From a virus, in the UHGV virus genome UHGV-1648906: a DNA stretch of 34,350 nt. The stretch is one strand, 5' to 3'. The stretch's first letter is position 1, and the number at the start of each line of letters is the position of its first letter. Below the pieces are notes generated by a model that was not told the DNA's origin, did no database searches, and worked only from the letters and a program-made list of their open reading frames with translations. Below, piece by piece: positions 3,186-31,700 of this stretch. A program made the translations under genes and the position numbers.

Positions 3186-3230
3186 TTGTATGTTATTTGG
3201 CTATTATAATAAGTAAGTGATTACTTAGTG
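3186..3230. promoter_or_regulatory. divergent promoter region with palindromic -10-like ATTATAAT and adjacent operator-like palindrome
   Basis: TATAAT at 3205-3210, inside the palindromic octamer ATTATAAT (reads the same on both strands); immediately followed by AAGTAA-GTGA-TTACTT (3211-3226). Lies between the divergent helicase and ParB-like genes. Confidence 0.4.
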
Positions 3231-3245
3231 GATTGTAGCAATAAA

Positions 3246-3926
3246 ATGGACGTAAAAATCACGATTTTGCAGGTTGATGTTGCCAACCTTCGCCCGAATA
3301 CCTGGAACACCAATTCGGTTGGTGCGCAGAATTTCGAAAAACTGAAAGGTTCTATCGAAAAATTGGGCTTTTTTAAGCCAATTTTGGCTCGTGAGCTTGA
3401 AGATGGATTTTTTGAAATCCTCGGCGGCGAACATCGCTGGCGTGCTGCTATTGAGCAAGGAATTTCAACGGTTCCTGTGCTTTCTGTGGGCAAAATTAGC
3501 GATGTCGTGGCAAAACAGATGTCACTGGTGGACAACGAGCGATACGGTGAAGACGACCAAATCGCATTGCAACGCTTCATTGAAGAAATTCAGTCAGAAC
3601 TTGACTATCAACTGTCTGAAATCGCCCCGTATGACGACGAAATCTCGATGGTTTTAGCAAAAGAGGCGGCAATCGACCTTGAAGCACTGGAGGCGTTGTC
3701 TCGTGGCGGTGACGAGCCTGTCGATACCGACAAACGAGAGAAAACCGAACGTGTCGGTGCGGAACATCAGACCATGCGCTTCAAAGTAACCTTCGATGCG
3801 TCAGATCGCGTTGCAGAAACCATAAAAAACATCATCAAAGACCAGGCAATTAATACTGGCAATGAAATGGAAAACGCTGGTGAGGCTCTGGTGTGGCTGG
3901 TCGACTACTACAAGGAGCGTATGTAA
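3246..3926 (+). CDS. ParB/Srx-like N-terminal domain protein (ParB-like nuclease domain protein)
   Basis: ParB N-domain pattern around FEILGGEHRWRAAIEQGISTVPV (GxxHRxxA box); stop overlaps the next start (TAATG at 3924-3928). Start uncertain: ATG 3246 or GTG 3228. Confidence 0.7.
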   Translation: MDVKITILQVDVANLRPNTWNTNSVGAQNFEKLKGSIEKLGFFKPILARELEDGFFEILGGEHRWRAAIEQGISTVPVLSVGKISDVVAKQMSLVDNERYGEDDQIALQRFIEEIQSELDYQLSEIAPYDDEISMVLAKEAAIDLEALEALSRGGDEPVDTDKREKTERVGAEHQTMRFKVTFDASDRVAETIKNIIKDQAINTGNEMENAGEALVWLVDYYKERM

Positions 3927-4594
3927 TGACCAAAAAGTTTGAAATCGTATATCGCGACCCGGCAGATCTTATTCCCTATGAGATGAATGCCAAAAAGCAT
4001 GATGAACAGCAGATCCGAGATCTGGCCGCAGCCATTAAAAAGCGCGGATTTGACCAGCCAATTACGGTCGATAAGAACGACGTAATTATTACTGGCCACG
4101 GCCGCCGTGAGGCTGCAATTTTTGCTGGACTTGAGCGCGTACCGGTTATTGTTCGCGATGATCTCAGTGATGACGAGGTTCGTGCGAAGCGTCTTGAAGA
4201 TAACCGACTTGCCAGCATTGATTACGATGCAATTAAGCTACAAAAAGAGCTTGAGTCGCTTGTTCTGGACGATATCGAGGTTTTCGGCTTTGAAGAGCGT
4301 GAGTTGAATGTTCTCGTTGGCAGTATGACAGAAGAAATGGACACCGACTCGCTAGTTATCGATCTTGGCGAAGAAACTAAACGACAGAAGGATGAACACA
4401 CCGAGATCAGTCGTGAAGTTGCAGCGGAAGAAGTACGTGTTGTCGACGTATTGGGCTTTAAAACGCTCCCTGCTGGCTCTGCCATTGTTGTTGGTGATTT
4501 GCTTGCCCATATGGAAGAAATGACGGGAGAAAGCGGGGTAGACGCATTTGTGGCATATGCGGAGAAGATCTCTTCCGGGGAGATGGCTGCATGA
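3926..4594 (+). CDS. second ParB/Srx-like N-terminal domain protein with acidic C-terminal region
   Basis: Motif VIITGHGRREAAIFAGLERVPVIV; SD AAGGAG at 3912-3917; internal ATG at 3926 chosen over the upstream extension of the track ORF. Confidence 0.7.
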   Translation: MTKKFEIVYRDPADLIPYEMNAKKHDEQQIRDLAAAIKKRGFDQPITVDKNDVIITGHGRREAAIFAGLERVPVIVRDDLSDDEVRAKRLEDNRLASIDYDAIKLQKELESLVLDDIEVFGFEERELNVLVGSMTEEMDTDSLVIDLGEETKRQKDEHTEISREVAAEEVRVVDVLGFKTLPAGSAIVVGDLLAHMEEMTGESGVDAFVAYAEKISSGEMAA

Positions 4595-5256
4595 GCAAAT
4601 ACATCATCAACGTATCGTTTCAGACACGCGTAAATAAAACCACGCGCACGTTGGAAATCGCTGAGTCGTTCGGGCTTGGCCTGGACGAAAAAGAGTGGAC
4701 GCTTTACGACAATCTGGAGCTGGAAGTGAAGCAGGGCGATGTGGTGTACATCACCGGCCAATCCGGTTCCGGCAAATCCGTTGTGCTGCGCGAGTTGCAA
4801 CGACAGATGAAGGATGAAGGGCTGTCTGTAGCCTCCATCGATGATTTTACCTTCGATAATGAGGTTAACGTCATCGATCAGTTGGGCAAAACGACCAGCG
4901 ATGCGCTTGGGTTGTTATCTATGGCAGGTCTGAACGATGCATATCTGTTTGTTCGCAAGCCTTCTGAAATGTCAGACGGTCAGAAATATCGTCTCAAGAT
5001 TGCCAAACTGATTGAGTCAGGCGCTAAAGTGTGGGCTGCTGACGAGTTCGGTGCTGTTCTAGACCGTGTAACCGCTCAGGTTGTGGCATCTAACCTCCAG
5101 CGTGCCGCTCGAAAGGTTGGTGCGACGGTAATGGTGGCGACGACTCACGAAGACCTGAAGAACGCGCTGCGCCCGGATATGCAGATCACCAAGCACTACA
5201 AAGAACGCGTGAAGGTGGAATATCACAATGGTAGTCATGATGAGGTTCATTTATGA
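4591..5256 (+). CDS. minimal stand-alone ABC-type ATPase (221 aa)
   Basis: Walker A GQSGSGKS, signature-like MSDGQKYRL, Walker B VWAADEFGAVLD, H-loop VATTHED; ATGA start/stop overlap with the upstream gene. Confidence 0.65.
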   Translation: MSKYIINVSFQTRVNKTTRTLEIAESFGLGLDEKEWTLYDNLELEVKQGDVVYITGQSGSGKSVVLRELQRQMKDEGLSVASIDDFTFDNEVNVIDQLGKTTSDALGLLSMAGLNDAYLFVRKPSEMSDGQKYRLKIAKLIESGAKVWAADEFGAVLDRVTAQVVASNLQRAARKVGATVMVATTHEDLKNALRPDMQITKHYKERVKVEYHNGSHDEVHL

Positions 5257-6143
5257 CGGACATCATCATTAAACGCTACCGCCCTGAAGAGTTTCCGCGT
5301 CATCTGGACTTTCTGGAGCGAATGACTGTCACAAAGGGAACTGTAGAGGACTGGCACGCTCTTAAGTCGCTTCACTACAAAACAGACGGCAAACCTTTCG
5401 CGCCAACTTACTATCGCTGCGAACTTGATGACCGTCTGGTGGGCGTCGTGGTTATGGCTTACCCGAAACTACTGTTGGCACCTCGCCACCGCATGTTTCC
5501 TAAGTTGAAACCAACCACTAATACCACCGTGGCTAACCAGTACTGGGGTCGGTACGTGAATAACAACTTTGCGGTGATCAGTCGCTCAGTTGTGGATACT
5601 CAGTATCGTGGCGTAGGCGTCTCTTATCGAATGATTAACCTGGTTAGCAGGATGCATGACCGGCCAATCATTGAGATCCAGTCCTCGATGAGTAAATACA
5701 ATCCCTTCGCCATGAAAGCAGGGTTTAAGTTCATCCGCCCTGAGCGACCGAAGAGCTATGAAAGTGCACTGCGTGTATTCCAGCGCCATTTCCGTTCCGA
5801 CCCGGGTGATAACGAGGCGATCGTCAAAGAGTTGTTCGCAATGAGCGAGTCTCGTCGTCGCCGTGCACTGCGTGATCTGGTGGCGGACTACCACAAGAAC
5901 AGTTCCCTGGCAAAAGCTGGGCGGAATCGTGGCACGACGATTCAGAACATTGCCGACAGTCTGGTGGACGAGGCCAGCATTGTGAAGCTGCTCAAGGACA
6001 TTCACAACCTGAGCTTTACGTCTCCGTTGTATGGTGTGTATCGAAACCCTGACTTTGGTCGTCGACTGCCTGACACGCTGCCACTGCTGGCATTCGACAA
6101 ACAACCTTTGGATAAACCGTTAGAAATTGCTTTACCGGCATAA
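5253..6143 (+). CDS. hypothetical protein (296 aa); N-terminal half possibly GNAT-fold acyltransferase-like
   Basis: Motif-A-like FAVISRSVVDTQYRGVGVSYRMINLV and NPFAMKAGFKFI; start overlaps upstream stop (coupled). Fold assignment is inference from motifs only. Confidence 0.55.
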   Translation: MTDIIIKRYRPEEFPRHLDFLERMTVTKGTVEDWHALKSLHYKTDGKPFAPTYYRCELDDRLVGVVVMAYPKLLLAPRHRMFPKLKPTTNTTVANQYWGRYVNNNFAVISRSVVDTQYRGVGVSYRMINLVSRMHDRPIIEIQSSMSKYNPFAMKAGFKFIRPERPKSYESALRVFQRHFRSDPGDNEAIVKELFAMSESRRRRALRDLVADYHKNSSLAKAGRNRGTTIQNIADSLVDEASIVKLLKDIHNLSFTSPLYGVYRNPDFGRRLPDTLPLLAFDKQPLDKPLEIALPA

Positions 6144-6152
6144 GGATTTGCC

Positions 6153-6419
6153 ATGACGTTAACCGATAAACAAAAGGACATTATCAAAACGCTCAATCTC
6201 GGTTATGAGCGAGGTCATTTACTTGATCTGGACGAATTGCTTGAAGTTTTGCCGTACAAGACAACCAAGCAAAGTATCCAGTTCTCAATTCGCGCTCTGA
6301 TAAAAAAGGGGCTGGTGGAGAAAGGGCATACGCGCCAACGCAGTGACAATCGCTATCACCGCCGAACTCTTGGGTTAACCACTTTAGGTCGAGCCAAAGC
6401 GAAGTTACTGGTGATGTAA
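6153..6419 (+). CDS. small winged-helix DNA-binding protein (88 aa), putative transcriptional regulator
   Basis: SD AAGGA at 6143-6147; helix-turn-helix-like segment TKQSIQFSIRALIKKGLVEKG with basic C-terminus; last gene of the coupled cassette. Confidence 0.55.
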   Translation: MTLTDKQKDIIKTLNLGYERGHLLDLDELLEVLPYKTTKQSIQFSIRALIKKGLVEKGHTRQRSDNRYHRRTLGLTTLGRAKAKLLVM

Positions 6420-6421
6420 TC

Positions 6422-6520
6422 GGTCTGGGAGCTTATTTAAAGACCTGCTTCTGTATATATAAATAATAAGTAACTTATTAAATATATACGGAAGCAGGCT
6501 TAATAAGACATGCCCAGACC
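6422..6520. repeat. ~100-bp imperfect palindrome (nested inverted repeat)
   Basis: Outer arms GGTCTGGG (6422-6429) and CCCAGACC (6513-6520); inner arms CCTGCTTCTGTATATAT versus ATATATACGGAAGCAGG; centre ATAAGTAACTTAT (6465-6477). Confidence 0.7.
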
Positions 6521-6537
6521 TAATTAAACACCCCAGA

Positions 6538-6609
6538 AAACAAGTTGGTTAGCAGATGCAGTAAACAAGTTGTTTTAGAGCGCATGGACGCGCTCTGTGT
6601 GTTTTAGAG
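6538..6609 (+). promoter_or_regulatory. direct repeats plus hairpin upstream of terS; candidate packaging or regulatory site, or attenuator
   Basis: AAACAAGTTG at 6538-6547 and 6563-6572; GTTTTAGAG at 6572-6580 and 6601-6609; hairpin AGAGCGC-ATGGAC-GCGCTCT (6577-6596) followed by GTGTGTTTT. Confidence 0.4.
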
Positions 6610-6615
6610 GGATCT

Positions 6616-7248
6616 ATGACGGTCGAAAAAGACGAGGTAAAAACTCGCCTGACACCAGCGGAGTGGGCCGAAGCTGAAGCCAAATGGACGTCAGGCGAAT
6701 ATACACTCTCAAAGCTGGAGGAAGAGTACGGCATTCGTCGTGAAACACTCTCCAGACATTTCAAAAAGCGAGGATTAGAGAAAGGCGCGGACTCTGTTGG
6801 GAAGATGGTTCGTGAGTCTCTTAAATCTGACGCAGAGCTTCGCGCTAAAGCCCGTGCGGAAAAGATAGAAGAACGTCGTACACGTTATGACGGCTGGGCG
6901 TATGCGTTGGGGCAGATGGTGATGGTCGAAGTCACTACGGCCAAACGTGAGAGTAAGCCTTTAGGGGCGATTGAGGATTCTCTCAAGAGCTTACAGAGAG
7001 CCAGTAATACCCTTGCAAAATGCTTTGAAGTTTCGTCCAAAGCATTGGGCATGGATCATGCGGAAAATGACGAGGAAGAAATTCCGAACCTGGTATTTGG
7101 TGAGCTTACACCTTCCCAGGTGGCGAAATTACGTCAGGAAGACGACGAGCCTGAAATCATCGATGACGAATTGCTTGAGACGTTGGAAGAAGAAGCTCTA
7201 AGCGAATTTGATGCGACAGATGATGGAAGTGAAGGGGAGGACGAATAA
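6616..7248 (+). CDS. terS: terminase small subunit (putative)
   Basis: Directly upstream of and overlapping terL (TAATG); HTH-like segment YTLSKLEEEYGIRRETLSRHFKKRG; strongly acidic C-terminus. Confidence 0.6.
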   Translation: MTVEKDEVKTRLTPAEWAEAEAKWTSGEYTLSKLEEEYGIRRETLSRHFKKRGLEKGADSVGKMVRESLKSDAELRAKARAEKIEERRTRYDGWAYALGQMVMVEVTTAKRESKPLGAIEDSLKSLQRASNTLAKCFEVSSKALGMDHAENDEEEIPNLVFGELTPSQVAKLRQEDDEPEIIDDELLETLEEEALSEFDATDDGSEGEDE

Positions 7249-8504
7249 TGGCAATCCCGTCCTCGCTCAGTCTTGTGCAACTGCATTCTGGACAGATGAA
7301 AGTCTTCCAGTCTCCGCATCGATTTAAAGTTGTTTGTGCTGGTCGACGCTGGGGAAAATCCCGGTTGTCGATCTCCACTATTATTCGTGCGGCGGCAAAG
7401 GAAAAAAAGCAAAGGGTCTGGTATGTCGCTCCTACTTACCAGATGGCTCGCCAGATTTTGTGGGACGATCTACAGGAAGTTCTGCCTCGTAAGTGGGTTA
7501 GGAAAAAGAACGACACCACGATGACAATCGTGTTGAAGAACGGTTCGGAGATCGCCCTCAAAGGTGCTGATAAGCCTGACACTCTGCGCGGCGTAGCGTT
7601 GCATTTTGTAGTGCTTGATGAATTTCAGGATATGAAGGCTGACACCTGGTACAAGGTGTTACGACCTACTCTTTCATCGACACGCGGCGGTGCACTGATC
7701 ATTGGTACGCCAAAAGGCTTCTCGGAATTTCACAAACTGTGGACTATAGGCCAGAACGTAGAGCTGCAAAGAAAGGGACAGTGGAAGAGCTGGCAGTTTG
7801 TAACTGCCGATTCTCCGTTTGTACCTACGGCGGAAATTGAAGCTGCTAAGAACGATATGGACCCCAAATCGTTCGCTCAGGAGTACCTGGCCAGCTTTGA
7901 GAACATGTCCGGGCGCGTTTACTACCCGTTCGATCGTAACGTGCATGTAAAACCGCTTCAGTTCAACCCTCGGTTGCCTATATGGGTAGGGCAGGACTTC
8001 AACATTGACCCGATGTCTTCAGTAATTTTGCAACCTCAGCCAAATGGTGAGCTATGGGCAATTGATGAATTGGTGCTCTTTTCCTCTAACACGGCAGAAG
8101 TTTGTGATGAGCTTGAGAGACGCTTCTGGCGCTGGAAATCACAGGTAACGGTATTTCCAGATCCGGCAGGTGCTTATCGCCAACATGCTCGTGGGGAGTC
8201 TGACGTAGACATATTCAAAGAGAAGGGATTCTTACGTGTCGATTATTCGAAAAAGCACCCGCCAATTGCGGATCGCGTTAATGCTGTTAACCGAATGCTG
8301 ATGTCCGCATCTGGAGATATCCGGCTGTATATCGATCCGAAGTGCAAGCATTTGATTGATTCACTGGAAAAAGTTATCTACAAGCCTGGAACACGAGATA
8401 TGGATAAGACAGGTGGCATTGAGCATAGTGCAGACGCATTGGGCTATCCAGTACATCGTAGGTATCCAGTCAAAAACCGTGTTATTCTTGGTGGTTCTCG
8501 ATAG
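7248..8504 (+). CDS. terL: terminase large subunit
   Basis: 418 aa; Walker A VVCAGRRWGKS, Walker B FVVLDEF, acidic nuclease-like C-terminal half; SD GGGGAGGA upstream. Confidence 0.85.
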   Translation: MAIPSSLSLVQLHSGQMKVFQSPHRFKVVCAGRRWGKSRLSISTIIRAAAKEKKQRVWYVAPTYQMARQILWDDLQEVLPRKWVRKKNDTTMTIVLKNGSEIALKGADKPDTLRGVALHFVVLDEFQDMKADTWYKVLRPTLSSTRGGALIIGTPKGFSEFHKLWTIGQNVELQRKGQWKSWQFVTADSPFVPTAEIEAAKNDMDPKSFAQEYLASFENMSGRVYYPFDRNVHVKPLQFNPRLPIWVGQDFNIDPMSSVILQPQPNGELWAIDELVLFSSNTAEVCDELERRFWRWKSQVTVFPDPAGAYRQHARGESDVDIFKEKGFLRVDYSKKHPPIADRVNAVNRMLMSASGDIRLYIDPKCKHLIDSLEKVIYKPGTRDMDKTGGIEHSADALGYPVHRRYPVKNRVILGGSR

Positions 8505-8520
8505 GTAAGTAATTATCTAA
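8503..8520. promoter_or_regulatory. intergenic palindromic element TAGGTAAGTAATTATCTA (terL-portal gap)
   Basis: One mismatch from the 11928-11945 copy; ends about 10 bp before the portal start codon. Confidence 0.5.
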
Positions 8521-8530
8521 GGTTATTCAA

Positions 8531-10105
8531 ATGGAATTGAACGACAAACAAATTAAGGATCTGGTGGCGCGACGCCACCCGGAATACGAAAAGAAAAAAG
8601 AACATTGGGACTTCCTCGCCAGCACTTACGCTGGCGGGCGTGGTTGGTTTACAGACAATATCTTTCGTTACTTTAAAGAGGGAGATCAGGAGTTTAAGGA
8701 GCGTGTTGAGCGTGCCTATCGCTTCAACCACACTCGTGAGGTGGTAAACCTCATCAACAAATATCTCTTTAAAGAAGACATTAATAGAAATATCGAAGAG
8801 GCACCAGAGCAGATCCGCAATTTCTGGAAACGTGCGACTCGCCAGAATGCCTCTATTGACTCATTTATGGCCGCCATTGATTTGCAATCGTCAATCTACG
8901 GCCGTATCTGGGTTGTTGTTGATAGCACAATGAGTGGTGATGTTGAGTCAGTAGCTGACGAGAAAAAGAAAGATGCTCGTGCCTACGCCTACTGGATTTC
9001 ACCTCAGCAAATGCTGGATGTGGCATGGGACGACGACGGGAATATGTTATGGGCGTTAATTGTGGAAGTCGCTCGCGATGACGCAGATCCTTTTACTTCT
9101 ACAGGTCAGGAATACCAACGTTATCGTCTGTGGACACAAAACGAGTGGTATCTGTTCCGTGAGGAAGTGAAGAAGGGGGCTGGTGGAGCAGGTCGTCGTC
9201 AGGCAAAAGTTATTTTAGAGGACAGCGGCGCGCATAATCTCGGCGTAGTTCCTGTGTTTCCTGTTGATTGTATTGGAGAAAGTGAATCACCGTATTTCAG
9301 CCCATCGTTGATCGATGATATCGCTTATCTTGATCGTGCGGTTGCAAACTATCTGTCAAACCTTGATGCCATTATTCAGGATCAGACATTTAGCCAGTTG
9401 GCTATACCGGTACAGTCGCTTTTACCTGGTGATGAAAACCACACTAAAGTGCTTGAAATGGGCACAAAGCGAGTCTTCACCTACGATTCTGAAGGTGGAA
9501 ACCAGCCGTTTTATCTGTCACCAGACCCGAAACAAGCTCAGATGATCATCACTACGATTAAGACGGTGATTAACGAAATCTACCATTCAGTTGGTGTAGC
9601 TGGTGAGCGAACGAAGCAGGACAACGCACAGGGAATCGATAATTCATCTGGTGCCGCAAAAATGTATGACTTCCAGCGTGTAAATAGCTTGCTTGTCACA
9701 AAAGCAGAGCGTCTGGAAAGGGCTGAACGCCAAATCATGCTACTGGTTGCGAAATGGATGGGGGTAGATCTGGACGAAGACCACTCTTTAATTGCGTATC
9801 CAGAAAGTTTCGATATTCGTGGCCTTACAGATGAATTTTCTGTTGCCGAGAAACTGTCATTACTTCAGGCACCGGACTCTGTACGTCGTCACCAGATGGA
9901 AATGCTTATTGAGAAGATTTTCCCGAACATTACTGAGGCGATGAAAAAGGAATTTGATAAAGATCTCTTGAATTTTCCTCCAAAAAATGATCTAAATACC
10001 CTTGAAAATAAGTCAGTACTTACTTATGATCGTGGTGCAGCCCAAGAAAGCGGGCAAGATCAACCCCGAGGGAATGGGGACTCATCTACTCAAGAGAACG
10101 AGTGA
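8531..10105 (+). CDS. portal protein
   Basis: 524 aa; position between terL and scaffold/capsid genes; size and acidic C-terminus typical of portals. Family not identified. Confidence 0.7.
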   Translation: MELNDKQIKDLVARRHPEYEKKKEHWDFLASTYAGGRGWFTDNIFRYFKEGDQEFKERVERAYRFNHTREVVNLINKYLFKEDINRNIEEAPEQIRNFWKRATRQNASIDSFMAAIDLQSSIYGRIWVVVDSTMSGDVESVADEKKKDARAYAYWISPQQMLDVAWDDDGNMLWALIVEVARDDADPFTSTGQEYQRYRLWTQNEWYLFREEVKKGAGGAGRRQAKVILEDSGAHNLGVVPVFPVDCIGESESPYFSPSLIDDIAYLDRAVANYLSNLDAIIQDQTFSQLAIPVQSLLPGDENHTKVLEMGTKRVFTYDSEGGNQPFYLSPDPKQAQMIITTIKTVINEIYHSVGVAGERTKQDNAQGIDNSSGAAKMYDFQRVNSLLVTKAERLERAERQIMLLVAKWMGVDLDEDHSLIAYPESFDIRGLTDEFSVAEKLSLLQAPDSVRRHQMEMLIEKIFPNITEAMKKEFDKDLLNFPPKNDLNTLENKSVLTYDRGAAQESGQDQPRGNGDSSTQENE

Positions 10106-24141: not shown

Positions 24142-25740
24142 TTGAACATGTATCAGTTCAAGAAAAAGAGATTGCCCCTCCTGATTGCGGGAGCGGGCGG
24201 CAAAAAGAGCTCAGGCTCAAGCCGTACACCAGTTGAAGCGGATGATACCGTTAATTCGCGGGCCATGGCGTCTATCCTCGATCTGCTCGGGGAAGGTGTT
24301 GTTGGTGGGCTTATTAACGGTGCTAAATCTATCTTCATCGATGGCGTGGCGCTGGAGAACGAAGACGGATCATTCAACTATTCCGGTGTAACCTGGGATT
24401 TCCGGGATGGTTCACAAGACCAAAGCCCGATGCCTGGTTTCGATTTTGTCGAAACGCCAAAGGCCGTTAACACACAGCTGAAAACCACAAACGCGGTTAC
24501 GGTCGCCATCGATAACGACGACGCTGATCGTGTCCGAGTGATCATGAAGTTCCCGTCGCTGCGTAGCATTGACAAGAAAACAGGGGACACAAACGGTACT
24601 TCTGTCCAGTTTAAGTTCCAGCTGGCCAATGGCAATGGCTCTTTCTATGACGTGATTGCTACAGGTGAGAGCAGCTCTGACGTGAAGCTGACTGCGAAAA
24701 AGACTGGTGTCTACTACCGCAGTTACGAAATCCAACTTCCAAAGCCTGGGCGCGCCTATAAAGTGCGCGTGCTTCGTCTCTCCGCCGACAGCAACGATCA
24801 GTATCTCTTTAACGATACCTGGGTCGACTCTATCGGTGAGATCGTTGACACCCCAATGAACTACCCGAACTCCGTTCTGGTTGGCCTTAAGGTTAACTCT
24901 GAGCAGTTTGGTAGCTCTATGCCGTCACGTTCGTATCTTATCCGTGGCCTCAAAATCCGTGTGCCTTCGAATTATGATGAAAATACGAACACTTATAACG
25001 GCGTTTGGGATGGAACCTTTAAGCTTCTGTCGTCTTCCAACCCTGCCTGGATTCTGTTCGATCTGCTGACCAATGCTCGTTACGGCCTCGGCAAATTTGT
25101 TTCGGAGTCAATGATTGACCTTGGCCAGCTTTATCAGATCGGTCGCTACTGCGACGAAGAGGTTGATGATGGCTTTGGCGGCAAAGAAAAACGCTTTGCA
25201 ATCAACACCCAGATCACCAGTCGTCAGGACGCTTATCGTCTGATTCAGGATATTGCCGGCGCTTTCCGTGGCATGGTTTTCTGGGCTGGTGGTATGGTGA
25301 ATATCATGCAGGACAGCCCGTCTGACCCTGTCATGCTCTTTACCAATGCGAACGTAAAAGATGGCCTGTTTACCTATAAAGGCTCAGCTCGAAAAGACCG
25401 GCCGTCCGTAGCGTTGATCACTTATAACAACAAACAAGACGGCTATAAGCAGAACGTTGAGTATGTTGAAGATCAGGAAGCGATGGCCCGATACGGGGAG
25501 CGCAAGACCGAGGCCGTTGCGTTCGGGTGCACCAGCCGAGGTCAGGCTCATCGTGTAGGTTTGTGGCTGCTCTATACCGCGCGTATGGAGTCAGACATGA
25601 TCACCTTTACCGCGGGCCTGGACGCCTCGTTCCTGATGCCGGGCGAAACCGTTCTGATTCAGAACAAATATCGTGCCGGCAAACGCAATTCCGGTCGCAT
25701 TGTCTCTCGATGCACCTGTCTCTCTGAAAAAGAGCGGTAG
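24142..25740 (+). CDS. host specificity (tip attachment) protein J-like, N-terminal part; reading frame ends prematurely after an apparent frameshift
   Basis: Recalled lambda J similarity: GVTWDFRDGSQDQSPMPGFD, PNSVLVGLKVNSEQFGS, FGCTSRGQAHRVGLWL, KYRAGKRNSGRI; the frame-1 stop at 25738-25740 follows a short out-of-frame tail (SRCTCLSEKER). Confidence 0.85.
   Translation: MNMYQFKKKRLPLLIAGAGGKKSSGSSRTPVEADDTVNSRAMASILDLLGEGVVGGLINGAKSIFIDGVALENEDGSFNYSGVTWDFRDGSQDQSPMPGFDFVETPKAVNTQLKTTNAVTVAIDNDDADRVRVIMKFPSLRSIDKKTGDTNGTSVQFKFQLANGNGSFYDVIATGESSSDVKLTAKKTGVYYRSYEIQLPKPGRAYKVRVLRLSADSNDQYLFNDTWVDSIGEIVDTPMNYPNSVLVGLKVNSEQFGSSMPSRSYLIRGLKIRVPSNYDENTNTYNGVWDGTFKLLSSSNPAWILFDLLTNARYGLGKFVSESMIDLGQLYQIGRYCDEEVDDGFGGKEKRFAINTQITSRQDAYRLIQDIAGAFRGMVFWAGGMVNIMQDSPSDPVMLFTNANVKDGLFTYKGSARKDRPSVALITYNNKQDGYKQNVEYVEDQEAMARYGERKTEAVAFGCTSRGQAHRVGLWLLYTARMESDMITFTAGLDASFLMPGETVLIQNKYRAGKRNSGRIVSRCTCLSEKER
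25695..25712 (+). other. frameshift junction within the J-like gene (TCTCTC dinucleotide run)
   Basis: Frame 1 reads GRIVSRC then stops; frame 2 reads LSLDAPVSLKKSGSFIRI and continues as the J-like protein; the sequence at the junction is GTCTCTCGATG. Confidence 0.6.
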
Positions 25741-28700
25741 CTTCATCCGTATCATCAATCAGGAAGGCAAAATCGTTGAGCGAGACATCAACGAGACCGG
25801 CGACAACATCACTAAAGTTACCTTCAAGACGGCGTTGGCCACAGCCGATCAACCAGTAGCGAATGGCGTCTGGACGATCACCGAACCAGACCTTGTTCCA
25901 ATGCGGGCGCGCGTTGTCGCTATCGCGCAAGGTGAAACCCCGGGGTCGTTTGATATCACGGTGGTGCAGAACAATGCATCTAAGTACCAGGCGATTGATA
26001 ACGGGGCCGCGCTCGTTCCAGAAAATACGACGGTTCTTGATCCCACATATTCCAAACCGAGCAACCTGGTCATCTCAGAAGGCACCTATCTGTCCAGTCC
26101 GGGCAACTTGTCCGTGAAGCTGATGCTTGCCTGGGAAGGTAAATCACCAGAATACTGGGTCAGCTGGCGCCGCTCCGACGAGGGCAACGTCTCCAACTGG
26201 CAATCTGCCCGCGCCACGGAAGAACAATATGAAATCGTCAATGTTGCCGAAAATGGGCGATATGACTTCCAGCTGTATTCCGTTTCCTTCGGCGGCAAAA
26301 AATCCGAGATCATTACTGCTGTCTATCAGGTAAAAGGCACGATGACGCCGCCAGGGGCGCCCACATCACTCACCGCGGTGGGGGATTATCGTAACGTGGT
26401 ATTGAATTGGGTTAACCCTGATTCAGTCGACCTCGCGCAGATCAACGTGTATGCGTCCAAAACAAATAAGCTGGACACCGCAACACTCATTGCTCAGGCT
26501 GCAACAACGACTTTCACTCACGCTGGCCTGGGTGACAACGAGACCTGGTATTACTGGATTCGTGCGGTAAACAAACGTGGGATGGTAGGCCAGCCGAACT
26601 CGAACCTCGGTACAGAGGCCACCACTCGCGACGTATTGTCTTTCCTGAAAGATAAGATCACATCTTCTGAACTCGGCAAGGAGCTGCTCGACGAAATCGA
26701 CAGCAAAGCCACTCAGGAGGCGGTAGACAACGCCATTGGCGAGGTTCAGAACTCAGTCAACGAGTCTATCCAGCAAGTTGAAAACGATCTGGCGCAAACC
26801 TCCTCCGAAATTAAGGCGCAGGTTGACTCTGTCAATCAGTCGCTGAAAGAGGATATAAAGACCGTCAATCAGACGATTGTTGACAACATCGATACCGTCA
26901 ACCAGACGATCAATACCAACATCTCCAACGTAAACAGCCAAATTGAAGCTGCAAAACAGTCTATTAAAGACGGCGACGCGGCTCTGTCGCAGGAGATTAA
27001 GAATGCGCAGTCATCACTGACAACGTCGCTGTCCCAGACCAGCAAAGATCTGACTGCGGCCATTCAGAAAGAGACGAATGACCGTATTGCAGATGTTAAT
27101 GACGCAGCCAAGCAAGCGGCCGACCAACTGCTGAGCGCGAAGAATGAGCTGAAAACCTCTATCGATAGCTTGTCTGAGGTTGTGACCTCCGGTGACGAAA
27201 ACCTCGCGCGACAGATCTCGCAGATTGCCGCTGGCACAGGGGAACAGTTTGACTCTCTGAAAATCTGGTATTTCGACCAGGACGCTGAAGGCTGGACGGA
27301 AGATGATAATGGCTACACGCCAATGAGCGTCACCAGCGATGGCTGGCTGAAAGCGAACAATCCGACCTCAACCTGTCGTTCCCCTAACGGCTTGACGATC
27401 GATGCCCATGCTTATCGTTTCATTAAGATGCGCATTAAAAAGGTTGGCAACCCAACCTGGAACGCCAAAATGTTCTGGATCGGCGCTGATGAAACCGGCT
27501 GGAATGCTGGTCGCTCCGTGGTTATCAATGAACCGGAATACGATGACAAGGGTATTGCGATTCTGACCCTGCACGACATTGAGTGGCGAGATTCGACAAC
27601 GATTCGTCGTTTCCGCTTCGATTTCACTTCAGGTCAGGATGCGGACAATTACCTGTTATTCGACTGGATCGCCGTCGGTCGACCGACGCCGGGCGCAGGC
27701 ATGGCCGCGTTACAGGAAGAGCAGCAGGCTCGTGCGAATGCAGATACCGCCGAAGCGCAGGCGCGCAGCACATTGGCTGCACAAATCCGCGGTTCCTCTG
27801 AAAGCGGAAATCTGGACGACATTCGCTCCGGTCTGATCTATCAGGAGAAAAATGCTCGTATCACCGCCGATGCTGCGGAAGCGAGTGCGCGTGAATCCCT
27901 GCAGACTGAATTCAACAGAAACAAAGCCTCTGTTGCAGAAGAGCTGCATACGCTGTCCACTGAACAAGCTTCCCAGGCAAGCAAGATTACCGGGTTGCAA
28001 ACAAGCCTTGGCCAGAAGGCCGATGCCAGTGCAGTACAGACAATTTCCCAGAAGGTTGAAGAGCAGGGCAACACCCTTAAATCACAAGGTGCGGCATTGT
28101 CTACGCTGGATAATCGCGTAGGAAGTGTTGAGTCTGGTGTGTCTGCGAATAGCAAGGCGATCACGGGTCTGCAGTCGACCGTAACCCAGCAGGATAAAAC
28201 CCTTAGCAGCCAGAGTGAAAGCATCACCACCCTGAATAACTCGCTGAGCGATATCCAGAGCGATACCGATACTGCCAAAAGCAATCCGAGCAATTTGCTG
28301 GTTAACGCCTCCTTTGAGCGTGACCTGGCAGGGTGGTCTGCAGGGAACAGCGTATCCAATGTTATCAAAGCGAGTGCGCCCCATTCTGGTAGCAAAATTC
28401 TTGTTTGCGCCGCTGGCACGGTGCAAATCACGCAATCTGTAAGCGTCGTCGAAGGGCGGACATACAAGCTGTCCTCTTTTGTGCGCTGCACCACGGATGC
28501 GGTAATCAGCAGCCCTGGCAACAACAAACTGCGTATTGGCGCAGCCACGTTGCTCAAAGAGATTCCGATCCGTCCGGAGAATCTGCCCAAAGATGAAACA
28601 TGGAAAGAGATCTCTGATACCTGGAAGGCGACGCTGACCGGTAAAGTTGACGTATCGATCATGTCTTCTCTCAAAACCGGTTCTCAGTACTTCGATGATA

Positions 28701-31700
28701 TTGGTTTTGTTGACGTCACTGATGCTCTGGCGATTGAGGCGAACGCCAGTGCCACCAATGCTTTGACCTCTCGGGTATCGTCTGTTGAGGGCACCATCAC
28801 AAGTCAGGGGCAACAGATCACTTCGATGCAGAACAGTATCAAGAACAAAGCTGACGCCTCAGCTGTGACTAATCTGACAAACCGCGTAACTGCTGCCGAA
28901 AATCAGATCTCCAGCCAGTCCCAGAGCATCACCAGCCTGTCAAATTCGCTGGATAACGCCAATGCTGATGCGGATGCCTCGAAAGCGATCATCGGCAACA
29001 TGCTCAAAAACAACTCTTTTGAACGTGGTTTCGAAGGTTGGGAGTATGTTGGTTGGACTCTGCTGGAGGCCCAAAACCCCAAATCGGGGAAATACATCAT
29101 CCAGGCGGGCAAACTGGCCTCTGGCGGTGACTCGGGCTGCAACCAAACGATCGAGCTGCAGGCTGGCAAGACTTATCGTATCGGCGCATGGGTTCGCAAA
29201 TCCGCTGACTTCGCGATCAATAATGCCGGCAACAACAAAATTAGCCTTCGAAACGCAGATCTGACGCCGATAAAGGATATCCCGATCACTGGCGCTGGGC
29301 TGTCGACGAACTGGGCGCTTATTAGCGGCGAGTATACGCCAGCCAAAACCGCCAGCGTGGTTGTGTCTCTGCGTGCAAGTGTCGCTTCCGGCTATATGTA
29401 TCTCGATGACGTCTTCTGCGTTGACGTGAGCAATGAGAAAGCGATTGATGCGACGTCCAATGCGTTATCAACCCTCAACAGCACCGTGACCCAGCAGGGA
29501 AAAGACATTACGTCTAACTCCAACAGCATCACTTCGCTGTCAAACCAGATGGTTAACGGCCGCCAGAACATGTGGGTGCGTAGCGTATACAACGTACAAC
29601 TGGCGAACAATACCACTGAGCCGACCTTTAGCGATATCAACGGTAAGGCGCCAATCTCGATCGATGAGGTTCCTGACGCGGCAAAACTGGACTTTGCGAG
29701 CGCCGGCAGTTACGTGATCGCGCATTACAAAGCCTTCGTGAAAGTCAATGCTGATACCACCATCACTATGGCACCAGGGGCTCGTGTTTTTGATGATACG
29801 GGCGCCGTGTACGTGAACGGTGTTAGGGTTGCCTTTGGTAATGCGAGCTGGAATACGGTTAGCTTTGATCTGAAAGCTGGCTGGAGCACGGTTGAGTTCT
29901 TGGTGAACCAATGGACTGGTCAGGCTTACATTAACCTCGGCTTTAAACTGTCCGAGAAGGTAGCCCAGCTGAATTCTGCTCTTGGGATGAACGCGCTTTC
30001 GAATGCCATTAGCGCCGTCACCTCAAACGTCAGCACCGTAGGTGATCGCGTCACGAGCACCTCACAGAGCGTTACTGACCTGCGAAATAGCCTCGAACAG
30101 ACCAACGCAAATCTAGCGAATAAGGCAGATGCACAGGCGCTGTCTACGCTGCAAAATACGGTCTCCAAGCAGGGGGATACGATTTCCAGCCAGGGTAACA
30201 GCATCACGAACCTGAATAACACCCTGACCGCTGCCAGAAACGCCGGTGACAACCTGATCCCGAACTACGATTTCCTGCAGGGTGCAACTGCGTGGGATAC
30301 CCAGTATCCGGCGGGCGTCACTTTCGGCAACTTCGGTGATGGTAAGGCTGGGGTTAAGCTGAACCGGACGACCACTACCAGCCCAGGCATCTTCTCCAAC
30401 AACAACAAGCCGCTGCCGCTTAATGGTCAGCGCAAATATCGTGTTGTGGTTAAAGCCAAGGGCGTGTCCGGGGCGATGAACATGTTGATCCGGCGCCAGA
30501 ACAAAATCGGCCAGACCGACAGCAATTATGAAGATAAAAACGTCACACTCACCAGTGAGTGGCAGACCATTACCTGGGAAACTGGGCTTACTGCCTCTAA
30601 CGCTGATGGCCAGAACTTTAAGCTTTACGCGCACCCGGCTAATGCCGAAATCTGGGTTGATACCTTTAAGGTCTTTGATATCACGGATGAGGTGAAGATC
30701 AAGGCTAATAGCGATGCGCTGTCTACGTTGTCGAGCACGGTGACGCAGCAGGGTGACAAGATCACCAGTCAGGGCAACAGCATCACTAAGTTGACCAATG
30801 ACCTCGAAGTCGCTGACGCAAACATCGCGAAAAAGGCCGATCAGTCGGCAGTCACTACGCTGACAGGTCGGGTAGAGAAGACGGAGTCCGGTCTGACGGC
30901 GGCGAACAGCAACATTACGTCGCTCAGCAGCTCTCTGAACCAGCAATCCAAACGCGGCGCCAATCTGCTTCCTGATGGCACTTTTGAAAGCTACGCGGTT
31001 GGCCATAATCTATCAAATAATCGCGTTATCGTGACCACTGATGACTCGCATGGCGGTAGTAAGTGCATCCGTGTGACGCGTCCGAATGATTACAACGCTA
31101 ACGCAACTGATAACAGCGATAATCACATTTTCAGCGGGTTCCAGGTTCGCGATAACGCAGTCTTCTATATGGAATGCTGGGTTAAGCTGGATGCCAAGAG
31201 CACCGCTATGGCCGAGAATGCGCAGATCTCCATTGGCTTGTCGCTCCAGTATCAGGATAACTCCTGGCAGTGGCCAGCAGTAACCAAAGCGGCGAAAGAT
31301 CTGTCTACAGCTCAATGGACGAAGGTTTCTGGTTACCTGAAATCAACGAAGAGCGGTATTAAGCAGGCAATGGTGAGGATTTCTATTCCTAACGTTAGCA
31401 GCGTTAAGGCGGGAAACTCATTCCTCATTGATGACCTGGTCATTACCGAAGTGACTGATGCCTACAATGCGCAAAGTACAGCAGACGCTAATGCCAATGC
31501 GATTTCGACACTGGACTCGACCGTCTCCCAACAGGGTGACCAGATCACCAGTCAGGGTAACAGCATCACCAAACTGACAAATGACCTGGCAACGACCAAT
31601 AACAACGTCAGTAAAAAAGCGGATCAGAGCGCTTTAAGCGTGTTGTCCGGGCGCGTCGATCAAACAGAATCGGGCTTATCCTCTGCGAATAGCAGTATCA

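Follow-up and report, generated by a model that had tools for sequence, protein, structure and literature searches.

The stretch of viral DNA analysed here, UHGV virus genome UHGV-1648906 (34,350 nt at full length, hereafter the window), contains a 196-nt gap bounded by the stop codon of a gene for an 88-aa protein (6153..6419, + strand) and by the ATG, at 6616, of a gene resembling those for small terminase subunits (terS). A helicase gene on the - strand is followed on the + strand by genes for two ParB_N proteins, an ABC-type ATPase, a 296-aa protein and the 88-aa protein, and then by the gap, the terS-like gene, the large terminase subunit gene (TerL) and the portal gene. The gap itself holds a three-tier imperfect palindrome of about 100 nt (6422..6520), two 13-bp boxes and a small leader hairpin with a U-run directly before terS. 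An original prediction, made from the letters of the window, had singled out this region as a candidate packaging, origin or regulatory site at the border between an upstream cassette and the terminase genes. The location is as described, and the gap, which had been called the longest non-coding stretch, is the longest seen between long open reading frames in a check that was non-exhaustive. Over positions 5200-8600 the window is 99.4% identical to the Escherichia coli phage-plasmid CMS-2020a and 99.3% identical to phage Cyrano (pLF82), with ~80% identity to Salmonella phage SSU5 and to Klebsiella phage-plasmids, and it is a phage-plasmid of the SSU5/pHCM2 type. Positions 6150-6900 are matched by 838 records of the plasmid collection, from Klebsiella, Escherichia, Enterobacter, Yersinia pestis, Salmonella and others.

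The palindrome begins 2 nt past the stop codon at 6419 and forms, on the transcribed + strand, a hairpin of five stacked helices of 8, 6, 3, 17 and 7 pairs with small internal loops, amounting to ~41 paired positions. Its outer arms (GGTCTGGG, 6422-6429, and CCCAGACC, 6513-6520) enclose middle stems (6432-6437/6502-6507 and 6440-6442/6499-6501), the 17-bp core arms with one T.G position (CCTGCTTCTGTATATAT, 6444-6460, and ATATATACGGAAGCAGG, 6482-6498) and an apical stem (6464-6470/6474-6480) around a 3-nt centre. The segment conserved throughout the family described below (6444..6498, + strand) consists of near-invariant arms around an AT-rich centre that is itself palindromic. Folded as RNA, positions 6415-6620 reach -76.9 kcal/mol against -42.9 +/- 4.4 kcal/mol in dinucleotide shuffles (z -7.7), and folded as DNA, positions 6418-6525 reach -27.4 against -7.0 +/- 2.0 (z -10); in both folds the observed energy was attained by 0 of 200 shuffles. 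The hairpin 6422-6520 alone has -50.4 kcal/mol and the core alone -28.1. The nested inverted repeat originally proposed at 6422-6520 is therefore present, with a fold energy far outside the shuffled controls, and its predicted helix spans about two or more turns of double-stranded RNA (17-bp core, 7-bp apical stem and 17 bp of lower stems). A search of Rfam 15 over 5800-7200 returned only sub-threshold matches to plant and animal microRNA precursors (18-26 bits against gathering scores of 70-211), which is what generic long hairpins give.

The palindrome core, CCTGCTTCYGTATATA..TATATACRGAAGCAGG, belongs to a family with three members in each relative examined, located at orthologous intergenic positions and always following a stop codon on the transcribed strand, an outcome that answers the comparison with related phages proposed as a check. 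In the complete genome of Cyrano, a local search found, besides the copy before terS (c108), two more copies of the core CCTGCTTCTGTATATA ... TATATACRGAAGCAGG: one (c31, Cyrano 31159-31211) after the par operon (CYRAN_28-30) and before CYRAN_31, the helicase and the primase, and one (c78, Cyrano 78085-78139) after an adenine methyltransferase gene and before CYRAN_80. Every Cyrano copy lies just past a stop codon and upstream of a gene on the same strand; the three are 30-47 kb apart, and their arm-to-arm span is 53, 55 or 56 nt. SSU5 itself has the same three copies, and a pattern scan of IMG/VR returned 120 loci, 120/120 at the three positions. Among complete E. coli genomes the palindrome occurs in 260 of 5426, with 1042 of its 1044 places on plasmids (median 4 hits per genome; the palindrome matches both strands), and it is essentially absent from E. 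coli chromosomes. Plasmids of Salmonella, Klebsiella, Enterobacter and Yersinia pestis carry it as well, and three seemingly foreign plasmid hits (H70-H72) turned out to be SSU5-type fragments or derivatives. A protein-guided search of representative genomes, with TerS as the query, gave only four close loci.

This distribution rules out a host repetitive element of the ERIC, REP/BIME or MITE kind, the palindrome being confined to plasmids and to three fixed orthologous positions. A hairpin-telomere site (telRL, N15-type) is likewise ruled out by the circular plasmid records and the three copies; the Cyrano annotation lists an integrase and no protelomerase. As to integron attC sites, a paper that mentions SSU5 is silent on such sites there, and no attC model was run.

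For comparison between lineages, orthologue sets were chosen by conserved flanking anchors, to avoid selecting on the palindrome itself. In these sets the inner 14 arm pairs are almost invariant. The consensus structure is supported across 22 distinct c108 orthologues. In most lineages c108 has a fold energy between -41.6 and -54.4 kcal/mol, the weakest value being -36.6, and the outer stems of c108 differ in sequence by lineage while complementarity is kept. Outer arms are common to c78 and c108 (GGTCTGGGAG / CTCCCAGACC), lying beyond the T-run at c78, and are missing at c31 in most lineages. In some lineages c31 and c108 have an identical 56-nt core; the same arm substitution occurs on opposite arms at c78 and c108; and in pL3995-2, a divergent Klebsiella phage-plasmid (64% identity over the queried region), c78 and c108 have lineage-specific arm changes in common. 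Such derived changes common to copies within a genome could reflect gene conversion or a trans-acting factor. At c31, the upstream DNA is unrelated between lineages, the palindrome and everything downstream being conserved (IMG/VR alignment; Cyrano 31135-31327), so that the palindrome there forms the border of a variable cargo region. An ISEcp1-associated insertion has removed the c31 palindrome from pL3995-2.

What follows the stem suggests how the family works. Directly after it, c31 carries TCTTTT... in 35 of 37 distinct sequences, and c78 carries CTGTTTT or CTTTTT in 31 of 32. The tail varies in sequence between lineages yet stays T-rich, and the left flank is not A-rich, which points to a directional signal, as in an intrinsic terminator of the + strand; both paralogues look like intrinsic terminators. 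The terminator scan did not report them, its loop and stem limits excluding them, and the ordinary terminators of this genome in that scan are short GC hairpins. In RNA-seq of LF82, the genes preceding c31 (CYRAN_28-30) reach log2(FPKM+5) values of ~8-10.8 in most samples (FPKM, fragments per kilobase per million), and CYRAN_31, 193 nt past the c31 palindrome, stays at 2.3-4.2 in 10/10 samples (PMC9928086, supplementary file 2). At gene level, the drop in RNA across c31 is thus ~50- to 1000-fold in that table. At the focal position, the mRNA of the 88-aa gene (CYRAN_123) exceeds that of CYRAN_122 and terS ~2-6-fold, and this excess is consistent with an upstream message stabilised by a 3' hairpin, together with a partial block to read-through.

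The same LF82 table gives the wider expression pattern of the element. The KacT toxin/antitoxin pair and CYRAN_43 (Cyrano 28190-29024 and 40268-40822) are by far the top-expressed prophage-plasmid genes, and expression throughout the late operon is close to background. Transcripts of the 88-aa gene are up in the same 6-hour macrophage samples as those of some late genes, e.g. the major capsid gene.

Divergent relatives extend the comparison beyond the reach of the conserved sequence. In pL3995-2, the hairpin at the terS position has three G.U pairs and a fold energy of -17.5 kcal/mol on the + strand versus -9.9 on the - strand; downstream of it comes a T-rich run of 30 nt, TCTCTTTTTAGTGTTTTTTGTGTGTTTTTT. 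The c78 copy of this plasmid no longer has a left arm, and ~10 nt downstream stands a canonical terminator unrelated to it. In a Providencia relative, the place before terS is taken by a large inverted repeat of unrelated sequence. These cases indicate that structure and terminator-like signal outlast sequence at these places.

Variation within the arms allows the strand on which the palindrome acts to be considered. Variants of G.U type on the + strand account for 10 site-by-locus cases (87 cells), versus 4 cases (16 cells) of C.A type, and one core position passes through U-A, U.G and C-G. In a strand test of fold energies, the + strand was better at c31 (31/34) and at c108 (25/33). Some arms carry uncompensated changes, the SSU5 copy of c78 having two mismatches; together with the variable spacing of 53, 55 or 56 nt, these changes argue against a rigid dimeric DNA-binding site.

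Downstream of the large palindrome, a leader hairpin, AGAGCGC-ATGGAC-GCGCTCT with the U-run GTGTGTTTT (6577..6606, + strand), was recovered by terminator scan, folding and covariation. The scan match, at 6576-6597, comprises a stem of 8 pairs, a loop of 6 nt and the tail TGTGTTTTAG, and corresponds to the GC-rich hairpin with a U-rich tail noticed originally. The hairpin ends just ahead of the ribosome-binding site of terS (GAGGG, 6607-6611). Between lineages its stem changes from GAGCGC/GCGCTC to GAGCAC/GTGCTC and to GGCGTC/GATGCC; two pairs are changed on both sides, the covariation score was reached by 1 of 500 shuffles, and the one-sided changes are all of G.U type, none of C.A type. With a short GC stem, a loop within the usual 3-8 nt, a U-run and conserved pairing, this element resembles an intrinsic terminator or attenuator, judging from its sequence and variants. 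In each of the two lineages checked in this respect, terS is preceded by at least one terminator-like signal.

Past the large palindrome lie the direct repeats, both pairs of which were found as originally described: CAGAAAACAAGTTGGTT (6534-6550) with CAGTAAACAAGTTGTTT (6559-6575), and TGTTTTAGAG at 6571-6580 and 6600-6609. The AAACAAGTTG repeats are two instances of a 13-bp palindromic box, AAACAAnTTGTTT: an imperfect box 1 (AAACAAGTTGGTT, 6538..6550) and, 25 bp from it, a perfect box 2 (AAACAAGTTGTTT, 6563..6575). The 25-bp unit is a tandem duplication, a single box being present in the L138 type and in pL3995-2. Cyrano has 18 boxes with at most one mismatch, versus 0.8 expected, including those on OV696614 at 29259, 32080, 43105, 58595, 70326, 80549, 81278, 85818, 93114, 93165, 94605, 95801, 96286, 97190, 97940 and 98425; pL3995-2 has 20. 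The 34-kb window, mostly late genes, has only the two upstream of terS. The boxes are mostly intergenic, with a few at or inside gene ends, and stand at fixed distances from ATAAT-like elements and start codons. Most follow one of two layouts, either an ATAAT-like element, ~13 nt, the box, a ribosome-binding site and ATG, or the box, tctGCCTT, ~15 nt and ATAAT. The spacer before box 1 (TAATTAAACACCCCAGA, 6521..6537, + strand) has the layout of a -10-like element, ACACC and AGA seen before other boxes, with a poor -10-like hexamer.

These positions are typical of an operator overlapping a promoter and favour an operator motif rather than pac boxes; judging by sequence and placement, SSU5-type elements seem to have a global regulator, dimeric and hitherto undescribed, with the box as its operator. 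Dispersed operators of global repressors in plasmids and phages, such as the RK2 KorB OB sites (a 13-bp palindrome in 12 copies), those of P1 C1 and the stoperators of mycobacteriophage L5, offer the nearest parallel to AAACAAnTTGTTT, with its ~18-20 copies, in being almost always intergenic, fixed relative to promoter elements and accompanied by ParB-family or winged-helix proteins encoded nearby. The box sequence differs from all of these, however, and its operator role is putative. One candidate for the box-binding or late-gene regulator could be the 88-aa protein, which is predicted to be a MarR-like winged-helix DNA-binding protein: it has weak NCBIfam matches to Sta1/Lrs14 winged helix-turn-helix regulators, and its AlphaFold model (pLDDT, the predicted local distance difference test, 81) finds its nearest solved folds among winged helices of the MarR/MepR type, at template-modelling scores of 0.65-0.77.

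Taken together, these features lead us to read the 196-nt gap as a transcriptional gate of the late (packaging and morphogenesis) operon in an SSU5-type phage-plasmid, an interpretation to which we give about an even chance of being correct. The 100-nt palindrome would act as a + strand RNA hairpin that closes the upstream operon, limiting read-through into terS and forming a stable 3' end of the upstream mRNA; its helix would be long enough to serve as a substrate of RNase III. One or two of the downstream 13-bp boxes would be bound by a dimeric phage regulator, and the leader hairpin with its U-run directly before the ribosome-binding site would act as a leader terminator or attenuator, the gate presumably opening in lytic growth. 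Such a gate would be ordinary in function but unusual, and apparently undescribed, in form; a literature search found no paper on these elements. A system for comparison is the lambda pR'-tR' late gate with antitermination by Q, in which a hairpin with a U-run also sits in a short leader before late genes; late expression here would similarly need read-through. Unlike in lambda, neither a Q-like protein nor a qut site or consensus promoter was identified here, the lambda unit precedes lysis genes, and the U-run is missing here in one relative.

That relative is pL3995-2, in which the leader hairpin lacks the U-run and the large hairpin has one, and it is one of several observations that weigh against a gate of this design. 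The focal copy c108 has no T-run, the core being followed by CTTAATAA and the outer stem by TAATTAAA; elsewhere in the main group the c108 tail is TTCTGAAT, CTCTCAAA or CTTTGAAA, again without a T-run. The decrease in RNA at terS is modest, in gene-level counts at low expression. At c78 the strand test of fold energies slightly favours the - strand, 11 versus 3. A scan for sigma-70 consensus promoters over 5800-7400 found none, and hence none between the two hairpins. Finally, the core is near-invariant across genera and palindromic to its centre, which is more than structure alone requires; such conservation would also be consistent with a protein that recognises double-stranded or cruciform DNA.

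The missing T-run decides how the focal copy is classed. It is a stable, GC-containing stem-loop right after a gene on the transcribed strand, as intrinsic terminators are; because the U-run is absent, we do not class it as one. Most likely it is a terminator-derived boundary hairpin, whose own capacity to terminate we infer from its paralogues and relatives. The original objection that a palindrome of this size is too large for a simple terminator is accordingly fair for the focal copy, which has no T-run, but is countered by the T-runs of the paralogues, the RNA drop and the canonical features of divergent relatives. Enterobacterial and phage intrinsic terminators share with this family an operon-end RNA stem-loop with a GC-rich stem base, a U-run in c31, c78 and the pL3995-2 orthologue, and a steep RNA drop, here across c31. 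They differ from it in that the stem here is far longer (a 17-bp core plus extensions, ~100 nt), its sequence is conserved across copies and genera, and the focal copy has no U-run.

Several other explanations were weighed against the gate. One, which overlaps with it and differs in emphasis only, is an RNA processing site like those of lambda sib or T7, the hairpin being mainly an RNase III substrate that separates the upstream and late mRNAs and sets their stabilities, with outer arms that complete the substrate only on read-through transcripts. We consider it unlikely, although by no means negligible: the long predicted helix (~41 paired positions, five stacked stems, small internal loops), the outer arms of c78 and c108 beyond the c78 T-run and the enriched mRNA of the gene just upstream all speak for it, whereas c31 does without outer arms in most lineages and the gene-level counts could equally reflect an internal promoter. 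In lambda, the sib terminator hairpin becomes a processing site once read-through extends its stem, and the outer arms here could imitate that extension; lambda sib/tI and the T7 RNase III sites are also, like this family, related intergenic hairpins on the transcribed strand with a helix of RNase III length. The T7 sites, however, have a characteristic internal loop, whereas the helices here are nearly perfect, there is no sequence similarity to either system, and processing here is a prediction. A further explanation is a DNA site that a phage protein binds or that extrudes as a cruciform, for example a lytic origin, with inverted recognition arms on either side of an AT-rich unwinding centre, or a loading site for a ParB-like or winged-helix protein. 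To this we assign a small probability. Arms almost invariant across E. coli, Salmonella, Klebsiella and Yersinia in flanks only ~80% identical, continuation of the palindrome to an AT-rich centre, three copies 30-47 kb apart, two ParB_N proteins and a MarR-like protein encoded directly upstream, and the arm changes common to c78 and c108 of pL3995-2 would all suit such a site. The varying arm spacing and the uncompensated changes, including the two mismatches in SSU5 c78, do not; a one-sided T-run would be pointless in a site symmetric as DNA, the c78 copy of pL3995-2 has lost an arm and been replaced functionally by an ordinary terminator, and common arm changes can arise by gene conversion. 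Set beside viral-origin palindromes, the element has the AT-rich centre and conserved arms, but spans 53, 55 or 56 nt with uncompensated arm changes. A DNA-level role for the palindrome is therefore a live minority reading. There is, in addition, a rather slim chance that the palindromes are also DNA-level sites (T4-style lytic replication initiation, packaging entry) or gene-conversion hot spots delimiting three exchangeable SSU5-type blocks; if true, this would explain a conservation of palindrome sequence far beyond what a terminator needs.

Exchange between copies is also the basis of a further alternative, which we hold to be improbable, namely that the palindrome is a recombination-prone repeat marking module boundaries and that the copy before terS has partly decayed into a relic that does little by itself. 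The complete difference between lineages upstream of c31, with palindrome and downstream DNA conserved, the identical 56-nt core at c31 and c108 in some lineages, the same substitution on opposite arms of c78 and c108 and the loss of the T-run from the focal copy can all be read in this way. A relic would not be expected to fold so stably (mostly -41.6 to -54.4 kcal/mol, at weakest -36.6), to keep its outer stems with different sequences across lineages or to persist as a large hairpin at the exact place in distant relatives. The PeSL (promoter-early stem-loop) cassettes of T4-type phages, reportedly described by Arbiol, Comeau and Krisch in 2010, resemble the family in being a repeated stem-loop with a promoter-like segment at module boundaries, with one variable side and signs of exchange; unlike them, the family has only three copies, at fixed orthologous positions, with much longer stems and no known excision products. 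Very improbable, in our judgement, is a packaging site (pac or cos) at which TerS would bind the palindrome and/or the repeats and terminase would cut nearby. Such a site is suggested by the position directly upstream of terS, as in pac sites of the SPP1 type, by the TGTTTTAGAG pair and the small hairpin, the only features unique in the genome, and by the start of the linear SSU5 record (JQ965645) at window position 6481. The Cyrano record (OV696614) starts at 6482, both starts falling inside the palindrome core (cut at 6480/6481-6482). The one-base offset suggests, however, that the Cyrano record was oriented on that of SSU5, a point on which the Cyrano paper is silent, so that the two are not necessarily independent. 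Moreover, 3 of 7 whole short IMG/VR contigs end within 200 nt of a palindrome copy, many database copies of the 88-aa protein are marked 'partial' at contig ends, and the three-copy palindrome probably breaks short-read assemblies. The SSU5/Cyrano record start is better explained as a contig break or an arbitrary cut, a physical genome end being unlikely; a literature search found no paper reporting SSU5 termini. Coverage of Cyrano in the public LF82 virome ERR8973296 is only ~41x, the same as the plasmid background. A TerL of the Terminase_6N/T4-like type is commonly tied to headful packaging, without fixed ends. Headful pac sites (SPP1 pacL/pacC/pacR, P22, P1) do lie on the 5' side of terS, and short repeats like those here could bind TerS, but the known sites are single per genome, whereas here the palindrome has three copies and the boxes ~18, located at operon ends or promoters. 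A pac site may lie within terS or close to it, but none of the features first noticed is specific evidence of it. Of the functions originally offered for the region, regulation is thus the one favoured; packaging and origin found no specific support, with three palindromes and ~18 boxes in the genome.

The genes on either side complete the picture of the locus. The 88-aa gene (PHROG phrog_900, function unknown) is the last of the ParB-like/ABC-ATPase operon, whose preceding genes occupy window positions 3228-6143 (two ParB_N-domain proteins, the ABC-type ATPase and the 296-aa protein, the last labelled in other annotations as a fusion of an ATPase with an acetyltransferase domain). This operon diverges from a DEAD/UvsW-like helicase gene and is distinct from the ParA partition operon of the element. 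The terS-like gene (6616-7248, + strand, 210 aa) belongs to PHROG phrog_867, 'DNA binding domain', and is labelled small terminase subunit in the Cyrano annotation; a search of its protein sequence against solved structures gave no match. TerL (7248-8504, + strand) has Pfam domains Terminase_6N/6C, its nearest solved relatives being P74-26 TerL and T4 gp17. Farther downstream, a J-like tail gene is seemingly split: one frame (24142-25740) closes with TAG at 25738-25740, and an overlapping frame runs open from 25658 to the window end at 34350, 2897 codons without a stop, spanning the separate J and tail-fibre genes of Cyrano. The split may be due to a frameshift, a fusion or a sequencing error.

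Phage-plasmids of the SSU5/pHCM2/pMT1 type are common, and some carry resistance genes; gene regulation in such phage-plasmids is essentially undescribed. The palindrome probably set where the reference SSU5 record opens, and that start is not to be read as a genome end. For the family as a whole, the hairpins, the ~18 boxes and a gated late operon would provide a testable map of how lytic genes are kept silent in the plasmid state.

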